DNA from: Kiritimatiellia bacterium
GTDB lineage: Bacteria; Verrucomicrobiota; Kiritimatiellia; CAIQIC01; Lenti-01
Reading direction: 5' to 3'
Assembly (NCBI GenBank): GCA_017527155.1
Contig: JAFXQI010000026.1
Span: forward strand, 883-64,882
DNA length: 64,000 nucleotides
The notes beneath the pieces are model-generated. The model did not search any database. It was not told where the DNA came from and saw only the letters and a list, made by a program, of their open reading frames with translations. Shown one piece after another: positions 9,069 to 58,800 of the stretch (position 1 is the first letter of the stretch; each line of letters starts with the position of its first letter). A program made the translations under genes and the position numbers.

Positions 9069-9204
9069 GTTTTCCAACCATTGGAAAAAAGTTCCCGCCG
9101 TTTTCCAATGATTGGAAAAATTTTTGCCGTTTTTTCCAATGATTGGAAAATATTTTTCCAATGGTTGGAAAATTCCGCGGATTTTTTCCAATGGTTGGAA
9201 AATG
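9069..9204 (-). repeat. AT-rich palindrome array A (5 copies, inverted relative to arrays B/C/D)
   Basis: Five TTTTCCAA-N3-TTGGAAAA units centred at 9079, 9110, 9141, 9163 and 9193. The spacing 31-31-22-30 mirrors arrays C and D. Confidence 0.9.
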
Positions 9205-9250: not shown

Positions 9251-9320
9251 GGTGGGGCGAGCACGCCGTGCGAGCCGCACAACCGATTGGAACGGCTCGC
9301 TCGGAGAGCTCGCCCCACCC
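9251..9320. repeat. REP-1 hairpin (inverted orientation)
   Basis: GGTGGGGCGAGCACGCCGTGCGAGCCG ... CGGCTCGCTCGGAGAGCTCGCCCCACC. Same family as 50737-50803 and 52314-52388. Confidence 0.75.
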
Positions 9321-25898: not shown

Positions 25899-27526
25899 AG
25901 AAGAAGTGGTATGTCGTGTTGACCTGCATCGTGATGCTCGCGGTGGCGGGGCTGGCGGTCGCGGTCGCCCAGTCGCCGGCCCCGACCGCGTTGCAGGCGG
26001 TGGAGGCGATGCCGGAAGCCGCGCAGGGCGCGGCGGTCGCGGTGACCGTGGAGGCCTCGTCCGGGTGGCTGGAACACCTGACGGACATGGTCAACAAGGT
26101 GGACGACTGGGTGTGGGGGCTGCCGCTGATGGGCTTCGTGCTGGTCACGGGGCTGCTGCTGACGGCAATCCTGCGCCTGGTGCACGTCTTCAACCTCAAG
26201 AACGCCTTCCGCTACATGTTCCACCAGGAAGAGGCCGGCGGCGTCTCCGGCGAGGTCAGCTCGTTCGGCGCGCTCTGCACGGCGCTTTCGGCGACGATCG
26301 GCACCGGCAACATCGTGGGCGTCGCGACGGCGGTCGGCACGGGCGGCCCGGGGGCGCTCTTCTGGATGGAAGTGGCGGCCTTCTTCGGCATGGCGACCAA
26401 GTACGCGGAAGGCCTGCTCGCGGTCCTCTACCGCAAGGTCACGCCCGACGGCAAGGTCCTCGGCGGCCCCTTCTACTACATCGAAAAGGGCCTCGGCGCG
26501 AAATGGAAGCCCCTCGCGGTGCTCTTCGCGGTGTTCGGCGTCCTCGCGGGGCTGCTGGGCATCGGAACCATCACGCAGATCCACGGCATCACGTCGGCCG
26601 TGCAGCGCTTCTTCGACCCCGGCTTCAATCCCCAGGACATGGCGACCGGCCTCAAGCTGTTCGGCGTCACCTACTCCATCCCCGTCGTCATCGCCGGCCT
26701 GATCGTCACGGCGTGCGTGGGGCTGGTGGTCATCGGCGGCCTCAAGCGCATCGCGAAGGTCGCGACGGTCATCGTCCCGTTCATGGCGATTTTCTACGTC
26801 CTCTTCGCCGCCATCCTCCTGCTCGGCAACCTCTCGAAGGTCACCACCGCCATCGAGCTGATCGTCAAGGCCGCCTTCAATCCCGCCGCGTTCACCGGCG
26901 GCATGGTCGGCACGCTGTTCATCGCGATGCAGAAGGGCGTCGCCCGCGGCATCTTCTCCAACGAAGCCGGCCTCGGCTCCGCCCCGATCGCCGCCGCCGC
27001 CGCCAAGACCAACGAGCCCGCCCGCCAGGGGTTGGTCTGCATGACCGGCACGTTCATCGACACCATCGTCATCTGCACCATGACCGGCTTGGCGATCGTC
27101 GTGACGGGCGCCTGGGAGCCGTCCCTCGGCCTCAAGGGCGTGGACATCACGATCGAAGCCTTCACGCGCGGCCTCTCCTTCCTCGGCCCGCACTCCAGCT
27201 GGCTGGCCTCGGGGTTCCTGATGCTGTCGCTGACGTTCTTCGCCTTCACGACGATCCTCGGCTGGGACTACTACTCCGAGAAGTGCCTCGAATACCTCGT
27301 CGGCATGGACAACCGGAAAGCCATCGGCGCGTTCCGCCTGCTGTACGTCGCGTTCGTGTTCGTCGGCCCCTACCTGACGGTCGCCGCCGTCTGGGGCATC
27401 GCCGACATCTTCAACGGCCTGATGGCGTTCCCCAACCTGATCGCCCTGGTGCTGCTCTCGCCGGTGGTCGCGCGCACGACCCGCGACTACCTCAAGCGCC
27501 GCGCAGAAGGCAAGGCCGAGGGCTGA
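25895..27526 (+). CDS. alanine/glycine:cation symporter (AGCS family)
   Basis: GEVSSFGALCTALSATIGTGNIVGVATAVGTGGPGALFWM, GIFSNEAGLGSAPIAAAAAKT. Only the last 543 codons of a 1289-aa track ORF are credible. Confidence 0.92.
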   Translation: MKKKWYVVLTCIVMLAVAGLAVAVAQSPAPTALQAVEAMPEAAQGAAVAVTVEASSGWLEHLTDMVNKVDDWVWGLPLMGFVLVTGLLLTAILRLVHVFNLKNAFRYMFHQEEAGGVSGEVSSFGALCTALSATIGTGNIVGVATAVGTGGPGALFWMEVAAFFGMATKYAEGLLAVLYRKVTPDGKVLGGPFYYIEKGLGAKWKPLAVLFAVFGVLAGLLGIGTITQIHGITSAVQRFFDPGFNPQDMATGLKLFGVTYSIPVVIAGLIVTACVGLVVIGGLKRIAKVATVIVPFMAIFYVLFAAILLLGNLSKVTTAIELIVKAAFNPAAFTGGMVGTLFIAMQKGVARGIFSNEAGLGSAPIAAAAAKTNEPARQGLVCMTGTFIDTIVICTMTGLAIVVTGAWEPSLGLKGVDITIEAFTRGLSFLGPHSSWLASGFLMLSLTFFAFTTILGWDYYSEKCLEYLVGMDNRKAIGAFRLLYVAFVFVGPYLTVAAVWGIADIFNGLMAFPNLIALVLLSPVVARTTRDYLKRRAEGKAEG

Positions 27527-32284: not shown

Positions 32285-33427
32285 ATGACGATGAAGAAGA
32301 GCGCAATTGCGATGTCCGCCGCGCTGGCCGCGGCGTTGGTGTGGGCCGCGTCCGCGGTGGCACAGGACGGCCCGGCGGCGGCCGACGGGGCGGCCCAGCA
32401 GCCGCAGGGCCCGAAGCCGTCGATGTTCCTGGTGGGGGTGGCGAAGGCGGGGACGGTGGACCACAATCCGGTGCGGACGTTCAGCGGGCGGGTACTCTCG
32501 CCGGAGACGGTGGCGGTGGTCGCGCAGGTGGCGGGGGAGGTCAAGAAGGTGAACTTCGAGGAAGGCGCGCTCCTCAAGAAGGGCGCGGTGATGTACAAGA
32601 TCGACCCCGTCAAGTACGAGGCCGCCGTCGCCTCGGCCAAGGCGCAGGTGGCGCAGGCCGCCGCGAGCGCGGACTACGCGCGCAAGTCGTTCGACCGCGC
32701 CCAGGCGCTGTTCGACAAGAAGGTCGCCTCCCCCGACGACCTCGACGCGGCCACCTCCGCCAAGGCGCAGGCCGAGGCCACCCTCGCGGCGGCGGAAGCG
32801 GCGCTGGTGACGGCGGAGGACAACCTGGCGCACTGCACGATCAAGGCGCCGGTGGACGGCAAGGTGGGGCTGAACGCGGCGGCGGCGGGCAACTACGTCT
32901 CGACGGCGTCGGGCGCGCTGGCGACGATCGTGCGCCAGGACCCGGTGCGGGTGGCGTTCGCGCCGGGCTCGCGCGACTACCTGGCGGTGTTCGGCGGCGA
33001 GAAGGGGCTCAAGGAGCTCTTCGCGGTGGGCGTGCGCCTGGCGGACGGGACGCTGCTGGAAGGCGGCGAGATCGAGTTCGCCGGCAACGAAGTGAACGCC
33101 TCCACGGACACGATGCCCGTCTACGCGCGCTTCGCGAACCCCGACGGCCTGCTCGTCCCCGGCGCGACGGTGAAGGTCGAAGTGCAGGCGCGCGAACCCC
33201 GCCGCTACGTCTCGCTCCCCGTCACGGCGGTGCAGCGCGACGGCGACCAGGCGTTCGTCTGGATGGTGGGCGAGAACAACCTCCCCGTCCGCCGCGACAT
33301 CGAAGCCGGCCCCGCGACGGCCACCTACCAGACCGTCCTCTCCGGCCTCGAAGCCGGCGAAGAAGTGATCGTCCGCGGCACCCACAAGGTCATGCCCGGC
33401 GTCCCCGTCGAGCCCGTGGAGCTGTAA
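32285..33427 (+). CDS. efflux RND periplasmic adaptor (MFP) subunit
   Basis: Signal peptide. Lipoyl/hairpin pattern GAVMYKIDPVKYEAAVASAKAQVAQAAA...NLAHCTIKAPVDGKVG. C-terminal barrel region. Confidence 0.9.
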   Translation: MTMKKSAIAMSAALAAALVWAASAVAQDGPAAADGAAQQPQGPKPSMFLVGVAKAGTVDHNPVRTFSGRVLSPETVAVVAQVAGEVKKVNFEEGALLKKGAVMYKIDPVKYEAAVASAKAQVAQAAASADYARKSFDRAQALFDKKVASPDDLDAATSAKAQAEATLAAAEAALVTAEDNLAHCTIKAPVDGKVGLNAAAAGNYVSTASGALATIVRQDPVRVAFAPGSRDYLAVFGGEKGLKELFAVGVRLADGTLLEGGEIEFAGNEVNASTDTMPVYARFANPDGLLVPGATVKVEVQAREPRRYVSLPVTAVQRDGDQAFVWMVGENNLPVRRDIEAGPATATYQTVLSGLEAGEEVIVRGTHKVMPGVPVEPVEL

Positions 33428-33435
33428 GCCCCCAC

Positions 33436-34656
33436 ATGCCCCGCAAGCCCGCCAAGCCGCACCCCGCGCCCGCCCCCGTCCCTCCCCTGGACGGATTCGA
33501 CGGCTTGGTCGGCCGCATCGCCGCGGCCTCCGACGCCTTGCGGGAAGGGGCGATGGCCGTCGTCAACCGCAGCGTCACCGCCCGCGCATGGCTCACGGGT
33601 TGCTACATCGTCGAATACGAGCAACACGGCCGCGACCGCGCGCAATACGGGGAGCGCCTGCTCGAACGGTTGGCGGAGCGGCTGGAAGACCGCGGACTTT
33701 CCGTCCCAAGCCTGAAAAAATTCAGGCAATTCTACTTGATGTACCCACGCCTTGCCGGCCCGATTTCCGCCTTTCTCGCCGGTCGGTTCGAAAAAGGACA
33801 GTCGGCGATTATCCAATTGCCTCCGGCCCGAACGGGAAAAGGAGAATCGGCGATTATCCCATCCGGCCCCCGTTCGTTGATTGCAGACGCGGACGGCATT
33901 CCGGAAGTGGACCCCGCGGTCCTTTTTTCACGTCTTTCGTTCACCCACGTCTTGCAGCTGCTTCCGCTCCCCGACCCCCTCCAGCGCACCTTCTACGCGT
34001 GGTCGGCCATCCGCGGCACGTGGAGCGTCCGCGAACTGCGCCGCCAGATCGCCAGCCGCTACTTCGAGCGCAGCGGCTGGAGCGGCGATCCCGCCCGGCT
34101 GGCGCGGCTGACCGACGCCCGTGCCGACACCGAAACGGCGCGCGAAAGCCTCCGTTCGCCGCACGTCTTCGAGTTCCTCGGCCTTGCGGCGAAGGACGTG
34201 TGGGAGGAGAGCGACCTCGAGCAGGCGGTGATCGACCACCTGCAGGCCTTCATGCTCGAGATGGGCCTGGGCTTCTGCTTCGAGGCGCGGCAGAAGAAAA
34301 TCCTGATCGACGGCCGCTACCACAAGATCGACCTCGTCTTCTACCACCGCATCCTCAAGTGCCACGTCCTCGTCGAACTCAAGGCCAAGCGGTTCGGCTA
34401 CGAAGACGCGGCGCAGCTGTCCGTCTACATGGCGCACTACCGCAAGCACGAGATGCAGCCGGACGACAACCCTCCGGTGGGCATCCTGCTGTGCACCGAA
34501 GCGGGGGCCGAGATGGCCGAATACGTCAGCACCTTCGTGGACCCGGGCCTGTTCGTGGCGAAGTACGAAGTGCAGCTTCCGCCGAAGGAGCGCATCGCCG
34601 CCTTCCTCAAGCGCGAGAACGCCCGCAACGCCCCGCCGGCGGGAGGTACGCCATGA
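33436..34656 (+). CDS. YhcG-like PDDEXK nuclease (DUF1016)
   Basis: FEFLGL...ESDLEQAVIDHLQAFMLEMGLGFCFEARQKKILIDGRYHKIDLVFYHRILKCHVLVELKAKRF. Only the last 406 codons of an 806-aa track ORF are credible. Confidence 0.88.
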   Translation: MPRKPAKPHPAPAPVPPLDGFDGLVGRIAAASDALREGAMAVVNRSVTARAWLTGCYIVEYEQHGRDRAQYGERLLERLAERLEDRGLSVPSLKKFRQFYLMYPRLAGPISAFLAGRFEKGQSAIIQLPPARTGKGESAIIPSGPRSLIADADGIPEVDPAVLFSRLSFTHVLQLLPLPDPLQRTFYAWSAIRGTWSVRELRRQIASRYFERSGWSGDPARLARLTDARADTETARESLRSPHVFEFLGLAAKDVWEESDLEQAVIDHLQAFMLEMGLGFCFEARQKKILIDGRYHKIDLVFYHRILKCHVLVELKAKRFGYEDAAQLSVYMAHYRKHEMQPDDNPPVGILLCTEAGAEMAEYVSTFVDPGLFVAKYEVQLPPKERIAAFLKRENARNAPPAGGTP

Positions 34657-34695
34657 CGGCGCGCCTCCGGCGGCCCGCCCGTGGCCTGCGGGGAG

Positions 34696-34820
34696 TTTTC
34701 CAACGATTGGAAAAAAACTTTCCAATCATTGGAAAAACCGGCGCGAATTTTCCAACCATTGGAAAAATATTTTCCAATCATTGGAAAACCGCCGAAAAAT
34801 TTTTCCAATCGTTGGAAAAC
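34696..34820 (+). repeat. AT-rich palindrome array B (5 copies)
   Basis: Units centred at 34705, 34727, 34757, 34779 and 34810 (spacing 22-30-22-31). Long identical runs shared with array C. Confidence 0.9.
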
Positions 34821-34859
34821 TCGCTTTGATCAATAACCCAGCAACAAAAGGACAACGCC

Positions 34860-35567
34860 ATGTCTGACAACCTCTCCACCGACCGCCCGCACAAATCTCC
34901 GCCATGGAAACGCATGCTCGGGATTGCCATTGGATGGCTTCTGGCCATGGGCGTCATGTTGTTGCTGCTGGACGGATGGTGGCGCGATGCACCATCGTTC
35001 GCCGTCATGTGGGGAACGATGGCCTTGTTGATGGCAGTTCCTTTCGCGGTGTCGGCGGCGTTGGTGTGGGGCGGGACGCGGTTGCGGCGCGGCGGCCGTC
35101 GCTGGGGAACGGCGCTCGTGGCCGTCGGGGTGGCCGGATTCATCGCGGCCGGTTCGATTCTGATTACCTTCGGGGGAAGTGCCGGGCCGTGGTGGGAGCG
35201 AATCGTGAAGCACGGGACGTTGCCGAACGGACGCGAATACGTCCTGTCCCAAGCCTGGGTAGACTGGTATGACGGCTACGACATCCGCATCTTCTTCCGC
35301 GAAGCGGACGGGAAATGGGTGTCCCTGTGCGGCGGCCACTGGTGGAAACCGTTCAGGCGCGTTACCGAAATCCAGCTGCATGAACCGGAGGGGGAGGTGG
35401 CCATCCGCACGACGCGCGGCGGCGAGTGGTTGCTGCGGGGGCATCGGACCGTCCACCCGGCGGAGATGACGCCGGAAGAACTCCATGCTTTCCACCGGGC
35501 GGAAATGGAAAATCTCCGCGCTGGGAAAACTCGCTCTGGAGAAGCGCCGCAAGGGGACGCACCATGA
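34860..35567 (+). CDS. A-family membrane protein 1 (4 TM plus soluble C-domain, unknown function)
   Basis: Paralogue of 38696-39382 (GTLPNGREYVLSQAWVDWYDGYDIRIFFREADGKW; HPAEMTPEELHAFHRAEM). Bracketed by arrays B and C. Confidence 0.65.
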   Translation: MSDNLSTDRPHKSPPWKRMLGIAIGWLLAMGVMLLLLDGWWRDAPSFAVMWGTMALLMAVPFAVSAALVWGGTRLRRGGRRWGTALVAVGVAGFIAAGSILITFGGSAGPWWERIVKHGTLPNGREYVLSQAWVDWYDGYDIRIFFREADGKWVSLCGGHWWKPFRRVTEIQLHEPEGEVAIRTTRGGEWLLRGHRTVHPAEMTPEELHAFHRAEMENLRAGKTRSGEAPQGDAP

Positions 35568-35650
35568 CCGCCCTCCTCCAACACCCCTTGCCCATCCCTT
35601 GCGCGGCGGCGCGGCAGGATGCCGCACCTCCCAGGGGGGGGCGGGGTTTC

Positions 35651-35717
35651 GGCCACAAAGAACACAAAGAGCACAAAGGGGGTTGGGAACTTTGTGCCCT
35701 TTGTGTTCTTTGTGGCC
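35651..35717. repeat. 28-bp-stem hairpin built from 9-nt units
   Basis: GGCCACAAAGAACACAAAGAGCACAAAG, 11-nt loop, CTTTGTGCCCTTTGTGTTCTTTGTGGCC (one mismatch). Confidence 0.8.
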
Positions 35718-35751
35718 AAAAAGGGATGGAGGGCGCGTCCAGGGGCGGAAA

Positions 35752-35910
35752 AATTTTCCAACCATTGGAAAAAAAGTTTCCAATCATTGGAAAAACCGGC
35801 GCGAATTTTCCAACCATTGGAAAAATATTTTCCAATCATTGGAAAAAACCGGAAAATTTTTTCCAATCATTGGAAAACCGGCGAAAAATTTTTCCAATCG
35901 TTGGAAAACT
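35752..35910 (+). repeat. AT-rich palindrome array C (6 copies)
   Basis: Units centred at 35763, 35785, 35815, 35837, 35868 and 35899 (spacing 22-30-22-31-31). Confidence 0.9.
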
Positions 35911-36286
35911 CGCCGCCCTCCTGCTCCTGCTGGCGGCGCCGTCGGCGCGCGCGGAAGACACGGTCTGGATGCCCGACCCCGCCGCCGTGGTCCGCTATAT
36001 GCGGACGGGCCCCTGGGACCGCACGGAGCGCGAAGTGCCGAAGGCCGAAGGAGACGGCATCATCGAGCTGCTGCGCGACGCCGAGCCGTTCCCGCGCCGC
36101 TATGTCCTCGAATCGAACCGGCATGACGGCGGGACGCTTTCCGGCGTCGCCCGCCTGTTTTACGGCGACGGCAATCTCTGGCGCATCATTTGGGAGGCTA
36201 ACAAAGACGCCGTTCCCGACCCGGACCGCCCCAAACCCGGCACCTCCCTCGTGATTCCCGCCCTGGCGGAAGGGGCCGCGCCGTGA
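35888..36286 (+). CDS. secreted LysM-domain protein (start codon unresolved)
   Basis: Signal-like KLAALLLLLAAPSARA and C-terminal LysM (TLSGVARLFYGDGNLWRIIWEANKDAVPDPDRPKPGTSLVIP). No ATG/GTG/TTG lies before the signal peptide. In-frame ATT 35888 and ATC 35897 lie inside array C; the nearest in-frame ATG is at 35726. Confidence 0.55.
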   Translation: MFPIVGKLAALLLLLAAPSARAEDTVWMPDPAAVVRYMRTGPWDRTEREVPKAEGDGIIELLRDAEPFPRRYVLESNRHDGGTLSGVARLFYGDGNLWRIIWEANKDAVPDPDRPKPGTSLVIPALAEGAAP

Positions 36287-36401
36287 CGGCAGGGCGGCAA
36301 AGGCGGCGTTTTCCCGTCCGATTGCAACCGAAGGCATTCGACGGCACGTGGTTTTCCCCGGCGTTCCCCTCTGGAATCCCATCCGCCCGGACTTCCAACC
36401 C

Positions 36402-36959
36402 ATGAAAAAACTCTTCCACATCCTCTTCGACACCGCTTGGGGGCCCGCCGCCGCCTGGGTTGTCGCCGGGGCCCTGGCAGGGGTTGCCTCCAATGCTTGC
36501 GCCGTTCATCCGGGCGACCCACGATCCACCATGCTCCTTGTCCTCGTCTGCCTGCCGCTTCTTTTGGCCGCCCTTGTCGCCTTGGGCGCGTTTGTCCGCT
36601 CGCTTCTGCGCCGGCGCTTTCTCCATGCCCTGCTCCAGATTCTCTTGATCGTTGCCGCCCAGGCGGCAACCGGCGTGGCCGTTGTCCCGTTGCTCGCTCC
36701 GGTCAACCGTTCGACTCCCATCCACACCCCGGACGCTCCACCCTCTCCTGACTCCTCCCTCCCCCCTTCCGCCCCTCCCGTCTCCCAGACATCCGAGTCC
36801 GCGCAGCGGCATTCGAGGCATTCTTGTAGATTCCGACCTCCCGCTTTCTTTCCGCAATTTGTCCGCCCGCAGGGCGCACCGCATCTTGTCACTTGTCACT
36901 TGTCACTGTGCCGGAGCCGCCCCCTTCCCGGGGTTGACGGAACAGGTCAAATGAACTAG
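36402..36959 (+). CDS. hypothetical membrane protein
   Basis: MKKLFHILF, then 3-4 hydrophobic helices and a Pro/Ser-rich tail that runs through a (CTTGTCA)x3 repeat at 36885-36906. The 3' end is uncertain. Confidence 0.4.
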   Translation: MKKLFHILFDTAWGPAAAWVVAGALAGVASNACAVHPGDPRSTMLLVLVCLPLLLAALVALGAFVRSLLRRRFLHALLQILLIVAAQAATGVAVVPLLAPVNRSTPIHTPDAPPSPDSSLPPSAPPVSQTSESAQRHSRHSCRFRPPAFFPQFVRPQGAPHLVTCHLSLCRSRPLPGVDGTGQMN

Positions 36960-36986
36960 TCTTCATGGCAGAAAGGAACGCCCCCC

Positions 36987-37265
36987 ATGACGGAACCCGC
37001 ACCTGCAATCGGATTGTTCGAAGCCAAGACGCATTTTTCGCGCATCGTCGACGACGTGGTCAACGGGCGCAGCGGCGCCGTGCCGGTGATGCGCCGCGGG
37101 AAACCGGCCGTGTACATCGTGGCGGACGCCTTCTACCGCCAGGCCACCGCCGGGGCCTCCCCGGGCATCCGCTACGGGCTGGCCAAGGGCAAATACCGGT
37201 TGGCGCGCGGCATCGACGCCGGCAACGCCGAAGTCCTCCGGCTCTTCCGCGGCGGTGAAGCGTGA
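36987..37265 (+). CDS. type II antitoxin, Phd/YefM-like
   Basis: 92 aa. GLFEAKTHFSRIVDDVVNG...PVMRRGKPAVYIV. Stop overlaps the toxin GTG start (GTGA). Confidence 0.75.
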   Translation: MTEPAPAIGLFEAKTHFSRIVDDVVNGRSGAVPVMRRGKPAVYIVADAFYRQATAGASPGIRYGLAKGKYRLARGIDAGNAEVLRLFRGGEA

Positions 37266-37648
37266 AGTACCTGCTGGACACGCACCTGCTGCTCTGGGCC
37301 ATCGTGGACGACCCCGCCTTCCCTCCGCGCGCCCGCAAGCTCCTGGCGGAAAGCGGCGCCGAGGCCTACTTCAGCGCCGCGTCCGTCTGGGAGGTGGCCA
37401 TCAAGAACGGCCTGCCCCACCGCTCGCTGGGGATACCGGCGGACGCCTTCCGGCGCGAATGCCTGGCGGCGGGCTTCCGCGAACTGCCCGTTGCGTCGCG
37501 CCACGCGGCGGCGGTCGAGTCGCTCCCGCACCGCCACGAGGACCCCTTCGACCGCATCCTCCTCGCCCAGGCCATCGAAGAAGACTGCACCTTCCTGACC
37601 CACGACACCCTCCTCCCCTCCTACGGCCCTCCCGTCCGCCGCGTGTGA
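37262..37648 (+). CDS. vapC: PIN-domain toxin
   Basis: MKYLLDTHLLLW, SVWEVAIK, HEDPFDRILLAQA, LTHD. The conserved acidic PIN residues are in the expected order. Confidence 0.85.
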   Translation: MKYLLDTHLLLWAIVDDPAFPPRARKLLAESGAEAYFSAASVWEVAIKNGLPHRSLGIPADAFRRECLAAGFRELPVASRHAAAVESLPHRHEDPFDRILLAQAIEEDCTFLTHDTLLPSYGPPVRRV

Positions 37649-37675
37649 CCCGTCCGCCCGGAAAACCGCAACACC

Positions 37676-38287
37676 TCAGTACCGCCCTCCATATTCCTTC
37701 CGCGCTTCGGCCGTCCATTTGGCGACGAAACCGCCCTTTGCATCCGTGTAGGCATCCCGGTCGTGCTCATGCCGCTTCCACAGGCGGAGCTTCAGCGATT
37801 CATATTCCTTCGCGGCGTCGGGGTGCTCGTTCAGGTAATCGCGGAAGTACAGCTCGCCGTTGTCCCCGGCATGCCGCAGGTGGATATGGTACACCTTGTC
37901 CGTAAACCCGTTTGGGGTATATCCCTTGTTGAGCGAGATCCTGGCCGCCCCGGCGGACATGACGGCAAAGCCGTTCCGTTCCAATATCCGGGCCAGGTCC
38001 TCCAATCCGCCGCTTTCGGGCACTTCGACCAGCACATCGACAATGTTCTTTGCCCATATCCCTTTGATCGCCGTGCTCCCGATGTGGCTGATCCTGCGGA
38101 TGGGACGTCCTGCGAACAGCTTCTTCAGCAGCATTTCCATCTCCCTGTAGTCCTCCGCCCACTTGCCATCAGGCTCGACAAGGACGATCGGAAACAGCTC
38201 CCACAATTCTTCCAACGACATCTCCGACAATTCTTTTCCCATGGCTGCCAACTCCCCAAGCGCCGATTTGCCGTCGGCCCTTTGCAT
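37676..38287 (-). CDS. GrpB family protein (UPF0157 nucleotidyltransferase fold)
   Basis: ISHIGSTAIKGIWAKNIVDVLVEV...YHIHLRHAGDNGELYFRDYLNEHPDAAKEYESLK. Visibly lower GC than neighbours. Alternative start at 38242. Confidence 0.85.
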   Translation of the reverse strand: MQRADGKSALGELAAMGKELSEMSLEELWELFPIVLVEPDGKWAEDYREMEMLLKKLFAGRPIRRISHIGSTAIKGIWAKNIVDVLVEVPESGGLEDLARILERNGFAVMSAGAARISLNKGYTPNGFTDKVYHIHLRHAGDNGELYFRDYLNEHPDAAKEYESLKLRLWKRHEHDRDAYTDAKGGFVAKWTAEARKEYGGRY

Positions 38288-38460
38288 GCAAATTCCGTAG
38301 AGCCACCAGTGCTCTTCACCGCCTTCCGCTTATATCCCCGCCCCCCTTGCCCCGCAAGAAAAAGAAGGTGCCCCGAATGCCCTTTCCTTTGGGCGGATTG
38401 GAACGGGATTTTCCAAGCTCACCCCATCCACGTCCCGCCCGCGCAGCGGGCGCACCGCAC

Positions 38461-38540
38461 TGAAAGGGTGAAAGGTTGAGGGAGTACGTTGAAGGGCCAT
38501 TCTTCGACTTTTCAACCTTTCGACTTTTCAACCTTTCACC
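38461..38540. repeat. hairpin with 8-nt micro-tandem arms, copy 1
   Basis: TGAAAGGGTGAAAGGTTGAGGG...GTTGAAGGG, loop, TCTTCGAC TTTTCAAC CTTTCGAC TTTTCAAC CTTTCACC. Confidence 0.75.
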
Positions 38541-38695
38541 CGTCGGGGCGGCCGCCGCGACGCGCGTTTCCCGTTGTCTCGCGCCGCGCCTTCTGCTAGA
38601 CGTTCCCTTGCAACCACACCTCTACGAACCAGAAGGGAACAAGGAGTGAGAACCATGGAGATGAAAAGCGGAAAAATGAAGCGGAAGGTGACGCC

Positions 38696-39382
38696 ATGAC
38701 GGCGGGACGGAAGTGGCTCTTGGGGGGATTGCTCGCGGTCGGCGCGGCGGCGGCGTTTTGCGGGCTTGCGTACTGGTTCTGGCGCGACGCGGTGTCGGTA
38801 CTCGCCCTGGTTTGGGTGCTTTGGATCCTGCTCGGCATCCCCGTCGCCTTGTGCGGATGCCTCTACTGGGCCGGACGCCGGCGCATCGGCTCCGGACGCC
38901 GCGGCGGACGGGCGATGGTCGGCGCGGCCCTGGCGGGCGGCGTGCTGGCCACCGCATTTTTCGGCTATTACCTCTGGATTGCCGGGCCGTGGTACAACGG
39001 CATCGTCCTGCGCGGGACGGCTCCGGACGGCGGCGAATACATCCTCTCCCAGGCGTGGACCGACTGGTTCGACGGCTACGACATCCGCCTCTTCCACCGC
39101 CAGCCGGACGGACAATGGCTCTCGCGCTGGGGCGGCTACAATTGGGAGTCGTATTACCGCGGCTACGAAATCGAGTGGAGCGGCCGCGCCCCCGTGATCC
39201 GGCTGGCCGACGGCAGCGAGCGCGGCTTCAACCACCGTCCCGACCGCCAAACCACCCATCCCGCTTTCCTTTCGCCCGACGACCTCCACGCCCTCCACCT
39301 CGCCGAAATGCGCACCGACCGCTCCATCCCCGGCATCTGGCACATCCTGAACAATGCGGATTCGGAAAGAGGCGCGCAATGA
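38696..39382 (+). CDS. A-family membrane protein 2
   Basis: 4 TM helices. GTAPDGGEYILSQAWTDWFDGYDIRLFHRQPDGQW; HPAFLSPDDLHALHLAEM. Paralogue of 34860-35567. Confidence 0.65.
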   Translation: MTAGRKWLLGGLLAVGAAAAFCGLAYWFWRDAVSVLALVWVLWILLGIPVALCGCLYWAGRRRIGSGRRGGRAMVGAALAGGVLATAFFGYYLWIAGPWYNGIVLRGTAPDGGEYILSQAWTDWFDGYDIRLFHRQPDGQWLSRWGGYNWESYYRGYEIEWSGRAPVIRLADGSERGFNHRPDRQTTHPAFLSPDDLHALHLAEMRTDRSIPGIWHILNNADSERGAQ

Positions 39383-39837
39383 AAAAGGAACGGCCCCGAA
39401 TGCGGATCAGATAAGCTCCGCCCGCCCATGGAACAAGCCCGCCCGCTCCCCGTTCTCCCCTGCCTGTGGCGCAAAACACGGAGCGTGCGGAGAAAGGAGA
39501 CACGGAGCTTTTCCAGGGAGGAGCTTCGCACTTCCAAAAACGTCCTCTCAGGAATAAGGGGCCAGGCCCGAACTTCCGCACTCCAGCCGTTCCTTTGTTT
39601 TCTTTTGTCCTTTTGTGCAAAAGCGCTCTCCAAGCCCTCCGCGTCTCCGCGTGGGTTTTCCTTCCCGAATCCCTCCCGCTCCCTTGTCGGACTTGGCGGA
39701 CTTTGAGTGGGACATTCTTCCGCCCTCCATCCGCCATGGCGCGGCAAGATGCCGCACCCCCGGAAGTGGCGCGGAAGCTTCCGGGCATGCATCGCGGGGA
39801 TTTCGGCGGGGCGGCTTCCAGGTAGGGCGCTGGATGT

Positions 39838-39878
39838 GAGATTACGGAAAACATTGGGCTTTTCGCTTGTTTTCCGCT
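39838..39878 (+). promoter_or_regulatory. UE family copy (5' half) upstream of RND gene
   Basis: GAGATTACGGAAAAC-N7-TTTTCG...TTTTCC. No ATGAA box; it is followed by the large 8-nt-unit hairpin. Confidence 0.4.
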
Positions 39879-39930
39879 TTCCAGGCGCCCCGCGGGCCTC
39901 CCGCCCGCGCCCCGACTGCACATCCGCGAA

Positions 39931-40070
39931 GGGTTGAAAGGTTGAAGGGGTGAAAGGTTGAAGGGTTGAAGGGTTGAGGGAATGGGCCGTCCTTCATCTT
40001 TTCAACCTTTCCACCTTTCAACCTTTCAACTTTTCAACCTTTCAACCTTTCAACCTTTCAACCTTTCACC
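39931..40070. repeat. large asymmetric hairpin with 8-nt micro-tandem arms, copy 2
   Basis: Left arm has ~6 units of GTTGAAGG/GTTGAAAG (39931-39980). Right arm has 10 units of CTTTCAAC (39991-40070). Ends 110 nt upstream of the RND start. Confidence 0.85.
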
Positions 40071-40179
40071 GGGCTTCGTGCTTTGCACATTCGCCCTTGC
40101 GGGGGGAGGGGGAAAATGGGTAGGATGGGGGGTCTCCGCGCAATGCGGGGGTAGTGTCTCCAAGGAAAGGATGTCATCC

Positions 40180-43100
40180 ATGTTCAGCAAAATCTTCATC
40201 GACCGGCCGAGGCTCGCGTTCGTGTGTTCGATCGTGCTCATGCTCGCGGGGGCCATCTGCGTGACGAAGCTGCCCGTGGAGGAGTACCCCGACATCGCGC
40301 CGCCCCAGATCTACGTGATGTGCAACTACCCCGGCGCCACTTCCCAGACGGTCCTCGACACGGTCGGCACCGCCATCGAGTCGCAGATCAACGGCGTCGA
40401 CGGCCTGCTCTACTACTCCGCCAACGCCGAGGACAACGGCAATTTCTTCGCCCAGGTCGATTTCCAGCCCGGCACCGACACCGACATCGCGATGGTCAAC
40501 GTCCAGAACGCCGTCAAGCGCGCCGAGCCCTCCCTCCCCGAGGAGGTCACCCGCCAGGGCGTCAACGTCAACAAGCGCTCCAGCGACATCCTCTGCGTGT
40601 ACGCGTTCATGACCGACGGCTCGCACATGAGCTCGATGGAGCTGAACAACTACGTCTCGAAGAACATCGCCGACGCGCTCTCCCGCGTCGACGGCGTCGG
40701 CTCCGTCACCGCCATGGGCGACACCTACGCGATGCGCATCTGGCTCGACCCCGTCCGCATGGACGGCCTCGGGGTCACCGTCGCCGAGGTCAACGCCGCG
40801 GTCTCCTCGCAGAACCTGCAGGCGACGGCCGGCAGCGTCGGCGGCGAGCGCGCGAACCCCTACGTGCAGTACCGCATCAGCACGATGGGCCGCCTGCAGA
40901 CGCCGGAGCAGTTCGAGGACATCGTGGTCCGCACGGGCGCGGACGGCAGCGTGCTGCGCATCCGGGACATCGGCCGCGCGGAGCTGGGGGCGCAGATGAC
41001 GTCGTTCATCGGCGAGTACAACGGCCGCAACGCGGTGGCGCTGATGGCCTACCGCGACACCGGCGCCAACGCCGTCGGCACCATCGCCCGCGTCAAGGCG
41101 GAGCTGGAAAGCTGGCGGGAGCGCCTGCCGGAGGGCGTCGATTTCCAGATCACCTACGACCCGTCGGAGTCGGTGGTGGTCTCGCTCAAGGAGACGGCCT
41201 TCACGCTGGTGCTGACGCTGCTGCTGGTGATCCTCATCACATACCTCTTCCTCCAGGACTGGCGCGCGACGATCGTGCCGGCGGTGGCGATCCCCGTCTC
41301 GCTGCTGGGCGCGTTCCCGTTCGTGTACGCGCTGGGGTTCTCGCTGAACACGCTGACGCTCTTCGGCCTGGTGCTGGTGATCGGGTCGCTGGTGGACGAC
41401 GCGATCGTCGTCGTCGAGAACTGCCAGTCCCTCATGCAGCGCGAAAAGCTCTCCGCCCGCGCCGCCGCCATCAAGTGCATGGAGCAGATCACCGGCGCCA
41501 TCATCGCGACGACCCTCGTCACCGTCGCCTGCTACGTCCCGCTCGCGTTCTACGGCGGCATGGTCGGTACCATCTACGTGCAGTTCGCCGTGACGATGTG
41601 CGTGTCGCTCTGCATCTCGACCTTCGTGGCCATGACCCTCTCGCCGGCCCTCTGCTCCCTCGTGCTGCGGCCGCCGCGCGAGAAGCCCGCGAAGATCTTC
41701 GCCCCCTTCAACCTCCTCGTGGACGGCTCGCGCAAGTTCAGCAACCTGTTCGTCGGGTTCCTCGTGCGGCGGAGCGTGTTCGCGGTCGCGATCCTGGCGC
41801 TCTTCGTCGCGGGCATCTGGGGCGTGTCCAAGCTCGTCCCCGGCTCCTTCCTGCCCGAAGAAGACAAGGGCATCGTCTTCTGCGACATCGGCCTGCCCGA
41901 AGGCGCCTCCCTCGAGCGCACCATGGACTCCGTCCGCGCCTTCCGCGACAAGACCGCCATGGTCCCCGAAGTCGACCGCACCATGGCCATCGCCGGCTTC
42001 GGCATGATCAACGGCGCCGGCGAATCCTCCGGCATGCTCATGGCCGGCCTCAAGCACTGGGACGACCGCGCCGGCAAGGGCCAGGACGCCGCCTCCCTCA
42101 AGAACAAACTCATGGGCCTGGGCATGACCCCCATCGGCTCCGACCCCGACTCCCTGGCGGCGCAGACCGACGCGCGCGTCATCTGCTTCACCCCGCCCGC
42201 CATCCAGGGGCTGGGCATGACCGGCGGCCTCTCCCTCTACCTCGCGAGCGACGGCTCCCTCAGCTCCTCCGAACTCGCCGCGGCCGCCGACAAACTCGCC
42301 GTCGACATCCAGCAGCTCACCGATTCCAAGGGCCGCAAGCTCGCCGCCTCCGCCAACAACTCCTTCGTCGCCAACACCCCCAAACTCTACCTCGACGTCG
42401 ACCGCGAAAAAGCCATCTCCCTCGGCATCAACATCTCCCAGCTCTTCTTCACCCTCCAGTCCCAGCTCGCCAGCTACTACATCAACGACTTCAACATGAT
42501 GGGCGAAGCCTTCTACGTCAAGATGCAGTCCGAGCAATCCTCCCGCACCAGCGAAGAATCCGTCCTCGCCCTCCAGATCCCCACCTCCTCCGGCGGCAGC
42601 GTCCCCCTCTCCACCATCGCCACCCTGCGGCACGAAAAGAGCTCCCGCGTCCTCCAGCGCTACAACAAGATGAACGCCGCCAAACTCACCGCCCAGTGCG
42701 CCCCCGGCGTCCCCACCAAGACCCTCATGGACGCCATCGAAACCATCCCCCTCCCCAAAGGCTGCTCCATCGAATGGACCGACATGTCCTTCCAGGAAAA
42801 ACAGAACCAGGGCCAGATCGTCTCCCTCATGGCCCTCGCCCTTTTGTTCGCCTTCCTCTTCCTCGTCGCCCAGTACGAGAGCTGGTCCATCCCCGTCCCC
42901 GTCATGCTCACCGTCGCCACCGCCACCTTCGGCGCCATGCTCGGCATCTGGGCGTGCAGCGGCAGCTGGGGCCTCGCCCACGGATTCGGCAGCGCCGGGT
43001 CCCTCTCCATCTACGCCCAGCTCGGCCTCGTCATGCTCATCGGCCTCTCCGCCAAGAACGCCATCCTCATGGTCGAATTCTCCAAACAGGAACGCGAAGC

Positions 43101-44763
43101 CGGCCAGCCCATCCCCGAAGCCGCCCGCAACGGCTTCAACATGCGCTACCGCGCCGTCCTCATGACCGCCTGGAGCTTCATCTTCGGCGTCATTCCCCTC
43201 GTCTTCGCCTCCGGCGCCGGTTGCAACAGCCGAATCGCCATCGGCGTCACCACCTGCACCGGGATGCTCATGGCCACCTTCGTCGGCATCCTCCTGACCC
43301 CCGGCCTGTACGCCTTCTTCCAGACCCTCCGCGAAGGCGTCAAACACCTCATCCACATGAAAACCTCCGTCGAGATCGCCGCCGAACACCGCGCCGAAGA
43401 AGCCGCCCGCGCCAAAGCCCGCGCCGCCGCCAAGACCCTCGCCCTCCTGCTGATTGCCGGCATCACCGCCATCCTCGCCACCGGCTGCGGAACCATCCGC
43501 ATGGCCCGCGACGCCCAGGCCACCGACACCGAACGCACCCTCCGCTGGACCGAGACCCCCTTCGCCGAACAAACCCCCATCCCCGTCGAAGCCCTCGCCC
43601 AGTGGGCCCGCACCAACGTCCCCGCCGTCGTCCAGGCCCGCGAAGACGTCGTGCAGGCCCAGATCGCCCTCCGCTCCATCAAAGCCTCTTATATCCCTGT
43701 CATCGACGGAAGCATCGCTTATACCTATGCTTCCGCCAACATCGACCCCCACGACACCTCTTGGGACGGCGACGGCATCTGGGACGGCAAACTCACCCTC
43801 AACTGGCTCCTCTTCGACTTCGGCCGCACCCCGGCCGCCACCCGGCAAGCCGTCGCCCGCCTCGCCGCCGCCGACCAGGCCGCGCGCGCCGCCGAACAGA
43901 CCGCCGCCTACAACGTCCGCGCCGCCTGCTTCGAACTCCTGCGCAAGACCGAACTCCACGCCGTCGCCCAGGCCAACGCCGCCGCCTACAAAGACCACCT
44001 CGAACAGACCCAGCACCGCTACGACGTCGGCGCCGTCACCAGCTACGAAGTCTCCAAGGCCCGCGTCGATTCCGAGAACGCCCGCCTCGCCGAAATCGTC
44101 GCCGCACACGGCGTCCAGACCGCCCGCGCCGGCCTCGCCCTCGCCCTCGGCCTCGCCGAAAACCCCGACATCGACCTCCAGCCCCTCGAAACCGCCCCCG
44201 ACACCCGCACCCTCGACGACCTCTGGGCCATCGCCCAGACCAACGCCCCATCCCTCGCCGCCCTGCGCGCCGCCGCCGACGCCGCCAAAAACTACGTCGA
44301 CTGGACCATCTGCGACCTCTACCCCAAACTCTCCCTCACCCTCACCTTCGACGCCCAAGGCGACAGCACCCCGCTTTTGTGGAACTACGCCGCCGTCCCC
44401 GCCGCCGCCCAGACCCTCTTCGCCGGCCGCGCCAAGACCCGCCAGATCGAGACCGCCGTCTCCCAACTCCGCGCCGCCCGCAGCAAACTCGCCGCCGCCG
44501 AACAGACTCTCTACAACACCCTCCTGAACGCCACCCTTTCCGCCCAAAGCGCCCAGGACGCCCTCGACGTCGCCCAAAGCGCCGCCGCCGCCGCCCAGGA
44601 AAACTTCGACATCGTCTCCAGCCGCTACGATGTCGGCAAAGCCTCCGTCCTCGAACGCACCGACGCCCAAGTCGCCCTCTCCCGCGCCCAAGCCGAAGTC
44701 GTCACCGCCCGCTACAACCTCCTCGACACCCGCATCCTCATCACCCGCCTCATCGGCGAGTGA
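40180..44763 (+). CDS. RND (AcrB-type) transporter continuous in frame with TolC/OprM-type outer-membrane factor
   Basis: AAGGAAAGG RBS then ATG 40180. MFSKIFIDRPRLAFV... 12-TM RND. No stop occurs before the OMF segment (lipobox-like LATGC plus TolC-type repeats), so the ORF is 1527 codons. The track start 39982 lies inside the 8-nt repeats. Confidence 0.85.
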   Translation: MFSKIFIDRPRLAFVCSIVLMLAGAICVTKLPVEEYPDIAPPQIYVMCNYPGATSQTVLDTVGTAIESQINGVDGLLYYSANAEDNGNFFAQVDFQPGTDTDIAMVNVQNAVKRAEPSLPEEVTRQGVNVNKRSSDILCVYAFMTDGSHMSSMELNNYVSKNIADALSRVDGVGSVTAMGDTYAMRIWLDPVRMDGLGVTVAEVNAAVSSQNLQATAGSVGGERANPYVQYRISTMGRLQTPEQFEDIVVRTGADGSVLRIRDIGRAELGAQMTSFIGEYNGRNAVALMAYRDTGANAVGTIARVKAELESWRERLPEGVDFQITYDPSESVVVSLKETAFTLVLTLLLVILITYLFLQDWRATIVPAVAIPVSLLGAFPFVYALGFSLNTLTLFGLVLVIGSLVDDAIVVVENCQSLMQREKLSARAAAIKCMEQITGAIIATTLVTVACYVPLAFYGGMVGTIYVQFAVTMCVSLCISTFVAMTLSPALCSLVLRPPREKPAKIFAPFNLLVDGSRKFSNLFVGFLVRRSVFAVAILALFVAGIWGVSKLVPGSFLPEEDKGIVFCDIGLPEGASLERTMDSVRAFRDKTAMVPEVDRTMAIAGFGMINGAGESSGMLMAGLKHWDDRAGKGQDAASLKNKLMGLGMTPIGSDPDSLAAQTDARVICFTPPAIQGLGMTGGLSLYLASDGSLSSSELAAAADKLAVDIQQLTDSKGRKLAASANNSFVANTPKLYLDVDREKAISLGINISQLFFTLQSQLASYYINDFNMMGEAFYVKMQSEQSSRTSEESVLALQIPTSSGGSVPLSTIATLRHEKSSRVLQRYNKMNAAKLTAQCAPGVPTKTLMDAIETIPLPKGCSIEWTDMSFQEKQNQGQIVSLMALALLFAFLFLVAQYESWSIPVPVMLTVATATFGAMLGIWACSGSWGLAHGFGSAGSLSIYAQLGLVMLIGLSAKNAILMVEFSKQEREAGQPIPEAARNGFNMRYRAVLMTAWSFIFGVIPLVFASGAGCNSRIAIGVTTCTGMLMATFVGILLTPGLYAFFQTLREGVKHLIHMKTSVEIAAEHRAEEAARAKARAAAKTLALLLIAGITAILATGCGTIRMARDAQATDTERTLRWTETPFAEQTPIPVEALAQWARTNVPAVVQAREDVVQAQIALRSIKASYIPVIDGSIAYTYASANIDPHDTSWDGDGIWDGKLTLNWLLFDFGRTPAATRQAVARLAAADQAARAAEQTAAYNVRAACFELLRKTELHAVAQANAAAYKDHLEQTQHRYDVGAVTSYEVSKARVDSENARLAEIVAAHGVQTARAGLALALGLAENPDIDLQPLETAPDTRTLDDLWAIAQTNAPSLAALRAAADAAKNYVDWTICDLYPKLSLTLTFDAQGDSTPLLWNYAAVPAAAQTLFAGRAKTRQIETAVSQLRAARSKLAAAEQTLYNTLLNATLSAQSAQDALDVAQSAAAAAQENFDIVSSRYDVGKASVLERTDAQVALSRAQAEVVTARYNLLDTRILITRLIGE
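43357..44763 (+). CDS. alternative reading: OMF lipoprotein initiated at internal in-frame ATG
   Basis: MKTSVEIAAEHRAEEAARAKARAAAKTLALLLIAGITAILATGC then a TolC family body. No SD-like sequence within 15 nt upstream of ATG 43357. Confidence 0.4.
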   Translation: MKTSVEIAAEHRAEEAARAKARAAAKTLALLLIAGITAILATGCGTIRMARDAQATDTERTLRWTETPFAEQTPIPVEALAQWARTNVPAVVQAREDVVQAQIALRSIKASYIPVIDGSIAYTYASANIDPHDTSWDGDGIWDGKLTLNWLLFDFGRTPAATRQAVARLAAADQAARAAEQTAAYNVRAACFELLRKTELHAVAQANAAAYKDHLEQTQHRYDVGAVTSYEVSKARVDSENARLAEIVAAHGVQTARAGLALALGLAENPDIDLQPLETAPDTRTLDDLWAIAQTNAPSLAALRAAADAAKNYVDWTICDLYPKLSLTLTFDAQGDSTPLLWNYAAVPAAAQTLFAGRAKTRQIETAVSQLRAARSKLAAAEQTLYNTLLNATLSAQSAQDALDVAQSAAAAAQENFDIVSSRYDVGKASVLERTDAQVALSRAQAEVVTARYNLLDTRILITRLIGE

Positions 44764-50712: not shown

Positions 50713-50736
50713 GTCAGTTCCTTTCCTTTTCCACGG

Positions 50737-50803
50737 GGTGGGGCGAGCTCTCCGAGCGAGCCGCTCCTTTACCTTGCGGCTCGCACGGAGTGCTCGCCCT
50801 ACC
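50737..50803. repeat. REP-1 hairpin
   Basis: GGTGGGGCGAGCTCTCCGAGCGAGCCG, loop, CGGCTCGCACGGAGTGCTCGCCCTACC. Confidence 0.8.
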
Positions 50804-50824
50804 ATGGCCATGCAACGGCATCCT

Positions 50825-52279: not shown

Positions 52280-52313
52280 GTCGGAATCCTTAGGCATCAA
52301 TTGGAACAGGTCA

Positions 52314-52388
52314 GGTGGGGCGAGCTCTCCGAGCGAGCCGCATGGGGCCGGGGAGGAGGGCGGCTCGCACGGAGTGCTCGCCCTACCA
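52314..52388. repeat. REP-1 hairpin
   Basis: Same arms as 50737-50803 in the same orientation, with a different loop; it directly precedes array D. Confidence 0.8.
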
Positions 52389-52399
52389 CGGCTGGAAAC

Positions 52400-52556
52400 G
52401 TTTTCCAACCATTGGAAACTTTTTTTCCAATCATTGGAAAAAACGGGCCCGATTTTCCAACCATTGGAAAAATATTTTCCAATCGTTGGAAAAAACGGGA
52501 AAATTTTTTCCAATGGTTGGAAAACGGCCGGGAATTTTTTCCAATCATTGGAAAAC
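52400..52556 (+). repeat. AT-rich palindrome array D (6 copies)
   Basis: Units centred at 52410, 52432, 52462, 52484, 52515 and 52546 (spacing 22-30-22-31-31, identical to array C). Confidence 0.9.
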
Positions 52557-52698
52557 CGCGGGGGGCGCGCCGCGGGCAAAAAAGGCCCCCCGGCCGCGTC
52601 GGTGGGGATGCTTGTGATGGCCGGTCCCGGGAGGGGGGGGAGAGGGAGCCGGCCGAGCGCCGAGCGCGGGCAGGGGGCGAGGGTTCCGGGGCGGGCGG

Positions 52699-58781: not shown

Positions 58782-58800
58782 TTTTCCAATCATTGGAAAA
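58782..58800. repeat. solo copy of the 19-bp AT-rich palindrome
   Basis: TTTTCCAATCATTGGAAAA, located between the UE copy and the GT4 start. Confidence 0.85.

Follow-up and report, generated by a model that had tools for sequence, protein, structure and literature searches.

Phased AT-rich palindrome arrays flanking an orphan gene in a Kiritimatiellia genome belong to a dispersed intergenic repeat family

Introduction

Why should two nearly identical arrays of AT-rich palindromes stand in the same orientation on either side of one small gene in a very GC-rich genome? The question is raised by a stretch of 64,000 nucleotides from a Kiritimatiellia bacterium (assembly GCA_017527155.1, contig JAFXQI010000026.1, positions 883 to 64,882), referred to below as the window, in which the arrays, named B and C, enclose the gene of a 235-amino-acid (aa) protein (Table 1). 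A first-pass annotation, made by a model from the nucleotide sequence without database searches, regarded the unit of about 1.2 kb as a cassette, a duplication junction or a ready substrate for recombination or excision. The analysis presented here indicates that B and C are members of a dispersed family of intergenic repeats, that recombination between array copies probably generated a 1,058-bp insertion/deletion (indel) at this locus, and that the arrays probably serve an oligomeric DNA-binding protein as a phased platform. We assign this combined reading a probability of roughly 0.6. The evidence is discussed together with three alternatives, in which the arrays are sites of an active cassette, RNA-level terminators or non-autonomous mobile elements.

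The B and C Arrays and Their Single-Array Allele

The five palindromes of array B start at 34698, 34720, 34750, 34772 and 34803, that is, in steps of 22-30-22-31 bp, and array C repeats this pattern and extends it with a sixth palindrome after another 31-bp step, exactly as first described. A gapped alignment of the two arrays gives 96.9% identity and an ungapped one, over 125 nt, 93.6%, and both runs quoted as common to them are found exactly twice in the window, the 70-nt run at 34719 and 35777 and the 25-nt terminal run at 34800 and 35889. Since the other array pairs of the window reach 84–91% identity, B and C are mutual closest relatives within it. The description of the arrays as AT-rich islands also holds, with a GC content of 34–36% (about 35% in B and C) versus 68.1% for the whole window. 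The motif TTCCAANNNTTGGAA matches the window 23 times, as compared with 0.06 matches expected in shuffled sequence. As single-stranded DNA (ssDNA), array B has a folding energy of -47.7 kcal/mol (z = -10.1), with the terminal palindromes pairing into a 23-bp stem. A search of Rfam 15 at the gathering score gave no array match; its sole matches in the window are two tRNAs.

The relation between the two arrays is illuminated by two related metagenomic contigs, L133 and L135, which carry one array of four palindromes in place of the pair. On the left it is flanked by sequence that matches the left flank of B (GCGCCnCCGGCGGCnnCGCC), and on the right by sequence identical to the flank beyond C, with homology to the window beginning inside C at 97.5% identity; the orthologous array C has six palindromes. 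With a B-type flank on one side and a C-type flank on the other, this single array means that the window equals the L133/L135 allele plus 1,058 bp. This unit comprises one array copy, the 235-aa gene, a repeat segment and a hairpin, and its ends are arrays in direct repeat. Judging from these alignments, homologous recombination between array copies is the probable origin of the indel, through loss of the unit from the relatives or its gain in the window lineage; the event would have been a deletion between B and C or the integration of an array-carrying circle. The expectation that the arrays are a substrate for recombination, with single-array variants in relatives, is therefore borne out.

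It is a separate matter whether B and C act as recombination sites of an active, excisable cassette, comparable to a pair of integron attC sites or a small mobile island with the 235-aa gene as its cargo. The unit is indeed flanked by direct repeats of 125–156 bp, single-array alleles exist in relatives, and the DNA around it consists of modules that are shuffled from strain to strain. However, five distinct contigs spanning the locus, from several samples, all carry five palindromes in B and six in C, and none presents an excised or empty form, these contigs being a narrow sample of one near-clonal population in which the same strain was assembled independently. Neither Pfam searches of the open reading frames (ORFs) tested between 28.1 and 44.8 kb nor precomputed Pfam assignments for all called genes of that interval revealed an integrase, a transposase or a site-specific recombinase. 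Homologues of the cargo gene occur elsewhere without flanking arrays, and arrays of the same type lie beside housekeeping genes genome-wide. Moreover, four arrays scattered over about 45 intergenic gaps would by chance have two of their number flanking the same gene about 25% of the time. Contigs of about 1 kb that contain only the gene (L124, L125 and L130–L132; window 34735, 34791–35783) have both ends within arrays, which indicates that short-read assembly breaks at the repeats, and such contigs could be mistaken for excised units. Active excision or an active mobile cassette at B/C is not supported, and we consider it highly improbable.

A Dispersed Family of Phased Palindromes

B and C are not alone. 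The window contains four arrays (A, B, C and D) and one lone palindrome, and arrays A–D, together with an array from a rumen metagenome-assembled genome (L017; 92% identity to B and to C), follow one template and can be aligned throughout, including the spacers. A scan of one genome per bacterial or archaeal species, with two palindromes 19–35 bp apart as the query, returned at least 119 loci in at least 45 species-representative assemblies. These assemblies, from lakes, sediments, groundwater and rumen, are labelled Kiritimatiellia, Kiritimatiellales, Kiritimatiellae, Pontiella, 'Lentisphaerae' or Verrucomicrobiota, and most of them are Kiritimatiellia. The family unit consists of 2–6 copies of a 15–19-bp AT-rich palindrome with the core TTCCAA-n-S-n-TTGGAA. 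Since arrays stand beside unrelated housekeeping genes in at least 45 species, they are not specific to the B/C locus, and the idea of a special cassette is not supported. The inference of selection or recent spread, once drawn from the AT-richness of the two arrays, can be kept for the family as a whole, not for the B/C pair.

The arrangement of the palindromes is strikingly regular. Here and below, counts of steps, sites, gaps and neighbouring proteins are among the matches listed. Although the query permitted any distance from 19 to 35 bp, 254 of 259 steps fall at 21–22 or 30–33 bp, and the larger class has a mean of 31.43 bp, or 10.48 bp per helical turn. Steps of 31–32 or 21–22 bp correspond to three or two helical turns, which places all copies on one face of the duplex. 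At the centre of the palindrome, 98% of 464 sites have C or G, and 71% have T/A at position ±8; the search pattern imposed neither feature. The spacers have a fixed length and a sequence that diverges between species. Viral contigs yielded only 12 motif matches, some of them off-phase.

The spread of the family is wide and patchy, and array presence and copy number vary between relatives. The locus L024 carries an eroded array, of a kind that the strict motif misses, and several more distant loci are free of arrays. By comparison of orthologues across loci, conservation of array position is weak: an array lies near both members in 6 pairs versus about 7 expected, a count in which the strict motif overlooks eroded arrays. 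A search of the literature for this element found no description of it. The family is best read as an undescribed phased AT-rich palindrome array, present in many Kiritimatiellia, and as a variant of the class of interspersed extragenic palindromes that includes repetitive extragenic palindromes (REPs) and bacterial interspersed mosaic elements (BIMEs).

Location of Arrays Relative to Genes

Both in the window and in most of the loci listed (at least 119), arrays of 2–6 units occupy intergenic DNA. According to gene calls made with a simple, purpose-built codon-usage caller, by which class counts and distances are approximate, 87 of the gaps holding arrays are tandem, 20 convergent and 15 divergent, and divergent gaps are mildly under-represented (15/122 vs 50/224, p = 0.03). 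In 51 of 127 arrays the start lies no more than 25 bp from a stop codon, and the distances to start codons are broad. The 150 proteins encoded next to arrays match 219 Pfam families, none of them more than twice, and represent ordinary housekeeping genes. This generic placement is incompatible with a role as regulon operator, obligate promoter or cassette-specific element. A promoter or regulon operator had been considered as a candidate and was rejected on three grounds: arrays occupy convergent gaps (A in the window and 20 elsewhere), no sigma-70-like sites were found, and the functions of the neighbours are not shared.

The preference for gene ends and the scarcity in divergent gaps would also be expected if the arrays worked at the RNA level, as tandem bidirectional terminators or 3'-end stabilisers whose short, A/U-flanked hairpins sum to efficient termination. 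At gene ends, canonical terminators are less frequent in array-bearing loci (24/387; 1/30 in the window) than in array-free relatives (9/63; p = 0.034), but the counts are confounded by the difference in GC content between the compared sets. The spacer between an outer-membrane-protein (OMP)-like gene and the malic-enzyme gene provides an example. In the array-free loci L160 (9920–10000), L161 (9915–10000) and L162 (9899–10000) it contains a conserved, textbook terminator, GAACCGGTTTTG..CAAAACCGGTTCTTTTT, which is absent from the window (52280–52698), where array D and a GC hairpin take its place. Against termination stands the weakness of the array stems, which have 6–8 A/U-rich pairs, whereas an intrinsic terminator has a G+C-rich stem followed by a U-tract. 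The terminator scan was blank in or beside A, B and C, and its lone match inside D is at the level of shuffled sequence; arrays and canonical terminators co-occur 8 times, with 7.2 expected by chance. Furthermore, 12% of arrays are in divergent gaps, some overlap gene starts (e.g., C with a 138-aa ORF), and RNA hairpins have no need of spacing in helical multiples. For these reasons a terminator function seems quite unlikely to us.

Mobile Repeat or Protein-Binding Platform

The distribution of the family invites another explanation, namely that arrays are non-autonomous mobile elements of the REP/REPIN type or miniature inverted-repeat transposable elements (MITEs), which fold as ssDNA hairpins and are copied by a transposase encoded elsewhere, such as a Y1/HUH enzyme resembling the REP-associated tyrosine transposases (RAYTs). 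No host function would be needed, and the phasing would be inherited from a master copy. This would account for the common template of the arrays of one genome, spacers included, and for the strong ssDNA fold with its stem of terminal palindromes. It would also suit the patchy occurrence across the class and the differences in presence among relatives: L139 and L160–L162 have no array, that of L024 is eroded, and array D is missing from the corresponding 82–103-bp spacer of relatives, the window spacer being about 320 bp longer and four times their length. A position just past stop codons is, in addition, typical of REPs.

The details are less favourable to mobility. Beyond the palindromes themselves, A–D, L017 and L133/L135 exhibit no target-site duplication and no distinct terminal repeats, features that define MITEs; the ends of the arrays are simply their outermost palindromes. 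Among the 150 array-adjacent proteins no family recurs as a candidate RAYT (Y1/HUH) or other transposase, and the sole Y1_Tnp gene seen lies in an array-free locus (L161) with no palindromes alongside. REPs are normally species- or genus-specific. Here, the 15-bp core is kept in at least 45 species while the spacers diverge, and the steps remain helical multiples across species despite the differing spacer sequence. We regard the mobile-element explanation as possible but unlikely.

An invariant core, a constrained central base, spacers of fixed length and free sequence, and exact helical steps together fit symmetric dimers that bind the duplex and touch one another along one face. The phased platform, a less certain reading than the recombination origin of the indel, would work as follows. 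Each palindrome may be read as duplex DNA by a symmetric dimer, and the phased steps would bring adjacent dimers together in an oligomer by which the array is bent or wrapped, in the manner of Lrp-type octamers on operators of equal geometry. Arrays would then have an architectural or boundary role at the ends of genes and would supply homology for recombination incidentally. A precedent for such a geometry is offered by the BarR operators, in which 4–5 semi-palindromes of 15 bp are separated by 15–17-bp spacers and the DNA is proposed to wrap on an octamer (PMC10201364). By analogy, BarR may serve as a model for the possible mode of action of the arrays, which implies no assignment of their putative binding protein to a family.

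Several observations weigh against the phased-platform reading and temper our confidence. No binding protein could be tied to the arrays, and the likeness to Lrp is one of geometry alone. Copies within a genome are alike in their spacers too (84–97%), which would equally fit copy-and-paste spread. The test for compensatory changes comprised 24 sites, too few to tell the hairpin from the duplex model, and symmetric changes are predicted by both; the excess of symmetry at ±1 lies between genomes and vanishes within loci. Three relatives with malic enzymes 72–77% identical to that of the window are array-free over about 20 kb each, which would be odd for an essential architectural system. The left-flank homology behind the indel is short (about 35 nt) and GC-rich, and the approximate nature of the gene calls discussed above affects the placement argument.

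A bolder version of the phased platform can be formulated, in which the arrays represent an undescribed chromosome-architecture system of Kiritimatiellia: an oligomer assembled on phased palindromes past gene ends would create wrapped or bent boundaries, serving as insulators or roadblock terminators. We consider this version rather unlikely and put it forward as speculation. If it were true, arrays would be selected where the protein is kept and lost where the protein is lost, and, as a side effect, the portable homology that they provide would promote the gain and loss of genes in accessory islands.

The Accessory Island and Other Features of the Window

Genes for a membrane-fusion protein (MFP) and a resistance-nodulation-division (RND) pump are normal operon partners. 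In the window, the gene of an HlyD-type MFP (identified with Pfam) is separated from an ORF encoding a single 1,593-aa fusion of an AcrB-type pump with outer-membrane-factor (OEP) domains by about 6.5 kb of DNA with atypical codon-position GC, and it is in this island that B and C are located (Table 1). The island contains a YhcG/DUF1016 nuclease gene, B, the 235-aa gene, the hairpin, C, the 138-aa ORF, a membrane ORF, an antitoxin-PIN pair, GrpB and a 228-aa paralogue of the 235-aa protein. An island integrated at tRNA-Met by an integrase was considered and rejected, the tRNA-adjacent ORF being the HlyD-type MFP.

Relatives were found with the MFP protein, and the content of the island differs in every one examined. 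In L139 the MFP gene is followed by an ORF of the 23S rRNA intervening sequence (IVS) type, an antitoxin-PIN pair and the RND gene, with zero arrays between MFP and RND. L135 has the MFP gene, the IVS-type ORF and one array, and then modules of the window in rearranged form. L133 has the MFP gene, the IVS-type ORF, one array and the block of the 138-aa ORF, followed by other modules, among them two AAA_14-DUF4143 ATPases, and by two further hairpin-plus-array units.

Table 1. Positions of the arrays and associated features in the window
Feature	Position	Strand	Remarks
Array A	9070..9204	.	Five palindromes, inverted orientation; cyclophilin and YqeY genes converge on it; 24 bp past stop codon
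Accessory island	33430..39980	+	Hypervariable; splits MFP (32285-33427) from RND-OEP (39982-44763) efflux genes
Left flank of B	34661..34695	+	Homologous to left flank of the single array of L133/L135
Array B	34696..34820	.	Five copies of TTTTCCAAnSnTTGGAAAA (TTTTCCAAnnnTTGGAAAA), steps 22-30-22-31
235-aa gene	34860..35567	+	Three hydrophobic helices (17-41, 46-73, 82-107; hydropathy) and conserved beta-rich C-terminal domain
Pre-hairpin repeat segment	35568..35640	+	Recurs beside arrays in L133 (several copies) and L017
Long hairpin	35647..35721	.	CACAAAG-type heptamer repeats; arms 35647-35678 / 35690-35721, 32 nt, 94% complementary
Array C	35754..35909	.	Six palindromes, steps 22-30-22-31-31 bp; orthologue of the single 4-palindrome array of L133 and L135
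138-aa ORF	35870..36286	+	TTG 35870, the sole plausible start, lies with the signal-peptide n-region inside array C; conserved in L133
Array D	52401..52557	.	Six palindromes; between OMP-like and malic-enzyme genes
Lone palindrome	58782..58800 (motif match at 58784)	.	Single copy

The protein encoded between the arrays had been described as having four transmembrane segments; hydropathy indicates three hydrophobic segments. It has zero Pfam matches, and its AlphaFold model (pLDDT 79) gave no fold match in the PDB (best E = 0.23). Together with the 228-aa paralogue (38696–39382; 43% identity) it belongs to a very small orphan family, represented by 12 clusters among 5.8 billion proteins and marked by the conserved core GPW...DGREYVLSQAWVDWxDGYDIRIF. 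Its homologues elsewhere (91%, 64–66% and 39% identity) are found among toxin-antitoxin and immunity genes, and no arrays flank them.

The interval between the 235-aa gene and array C is more complex than a hairpin with a 28-bp stem, as which it was first annotated: the hairpin is present, with longer and imperfectly complementary arms, and a repeated GC-rich segment of about 75 nt precedes it. This segment recurs directly upstream of hairpins or arrays in L133 (6550, 9288, 4377, 10104 and 7356) and in L017 (2641–2691), and the recurrence suggests composite repeat units of segment, hairpin and array. Long hairpins built of tandem 7–8-nt units (CACAAAG, GTTGAAAG/CTTTCAAC) also occur at 38455–38545 and 39935–40068, in addition to the one beside C, and at 36880–36910. 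In L133 (1335–1810), L135 (462–925) and L139 (218–685), arms of similar style (AATGCACAATGCAGAATGCA...) enclose an ORF for a four-helix bundle of the 23S rRNA intervening-sequence type (PF05635), and the hairpins of the window may be empty versions of these elements.

Array C extends into coding sequence. As TTG 35870 is the only in-frame start of the 138-aa ORF that includes the signal-peptide-like stretch, the array supplies both the start codon of this ORF and its charged n-region (MENRRKIFPIVGK...). This array-encoded beginning (35870–35960) is conserved in L133 (1906–2000).

Two further features lie outside the island. An imperfect palindrome rich in GC (GGTGGGGCGAGC...GCTCGCCCCACC) constitutes a second dispersed repeat, present at 9251–9319, 50729–50813 and 52314–52397, and it stands on the same side of A and of D relative to array polarity. 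Finally, a comparison of the window (26108–27500) with L128 (2676–4070) revealed 271 differences, all inside about 1.4 kb (26.1–27.5 kb); L128 is identical to the window from 27.5 kb onward, and leftward of the block homology stops completely. The block looks like a recent recombinant segment at the edge of another variable region.

Comparison with Known Repeat Systems

The closest resemblance is to the REPs and BIMEs of Enterobacteria and Pseudomonas, which are likewise short, multicopy extragenic palindromes, often located just downstream of genes, clustered, variable in copy number and similar within a genome. IHF and gyrase bind BIMEs. Both kinds of repeats provide sites of recombination and sites for architectural proteins, the latter presumably in the case of the arrays. 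Nevertheless, the arrays are AT-rich in a GC-rich genome, whereas REPs and BIMEs are GC-rich; their palindromes are nearly perfect and lack a conserved flanking tetranucleotide; their steps are quantised at two or three helical turns; and their core is the same in at least 45 species, without the confinement to one species or genus that is usual for REPs.

The Lrp/AsnC operator arrays, exemplified by BarR of Sulfolobales, share with the arrays 15-bp (semi)palindromes, 15–17-bp spacers, 4–5 sites and, in the proposed model, one dimer per site (PMC10201364). They are found at few promoters, in many cases at the promoter of the gene that encodes the regulator, unlike the present arrays, which number several per 64 kb and lie mostly past the ends of unrelated genes. 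The centre of the site contains S here and is A/T-rich in Lrp-type sites, and the likeness is confined to geometry. The sopC locus of the F plasmid and iterons also consist of a short palindrome repeated in tandem at a fixed period, a platform for cooperative protein binding as the arrays may be; they are single plasmid loci with the cognate gene adjacent, while the arrays occupy many chromosomal loci with no adjacent cognate gene.

Chromosomal integron attC sites, such as the repeats of Vibrio cholerae, recall the organisation of the island: they are dyad repeats of about 120–150 bp between small genes, frequently orphans or toxin-antitoxin genes, of a variable region whose cassettes differ between strains. 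The arrays differ from them in having neither an adjacent tyrosine-recombinase integrase with attI (Pfam, 28.1–44.8 kb) nor R''/L''-L'/R' core sites, and in being dispersed instead of gathered in one array of co-oriented cassettes: A, 25 kb away, adjoins the cyclophilin/YqeY genes, and D, 17 kb away, adjoins the malic-enzyme gene. CRISPR loci have 23–50-nt repeats and unique spacers of similar length, in contrast to the array spacers of 6–7 or 16–17 nt, which are common to A–D.

Significance

To our knowledge, interspersed palindromic repeats have received much attention in a few Proteobacteria and next to none in the Planctomycetes-Verrucomicrobia-Chlamydiae (PVC) superphylum. Three traits, taken together, set the present family apart from known REPs and BIMEs: a core conserved over dozens of species, strict spacing in helical multiples, and AT-richness within GC-rich genomes. 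The arrays have a practical consequence as well, as short-read assemblies of these genomes break at them and contigs end within them. They mark sites of accessory-gene exchange, as at the efflux-operon island, and the family offers a tractable entry to a DNA-binding protein or a boundary mechanism in a poorly known and mostly uncultured class of bacteria.

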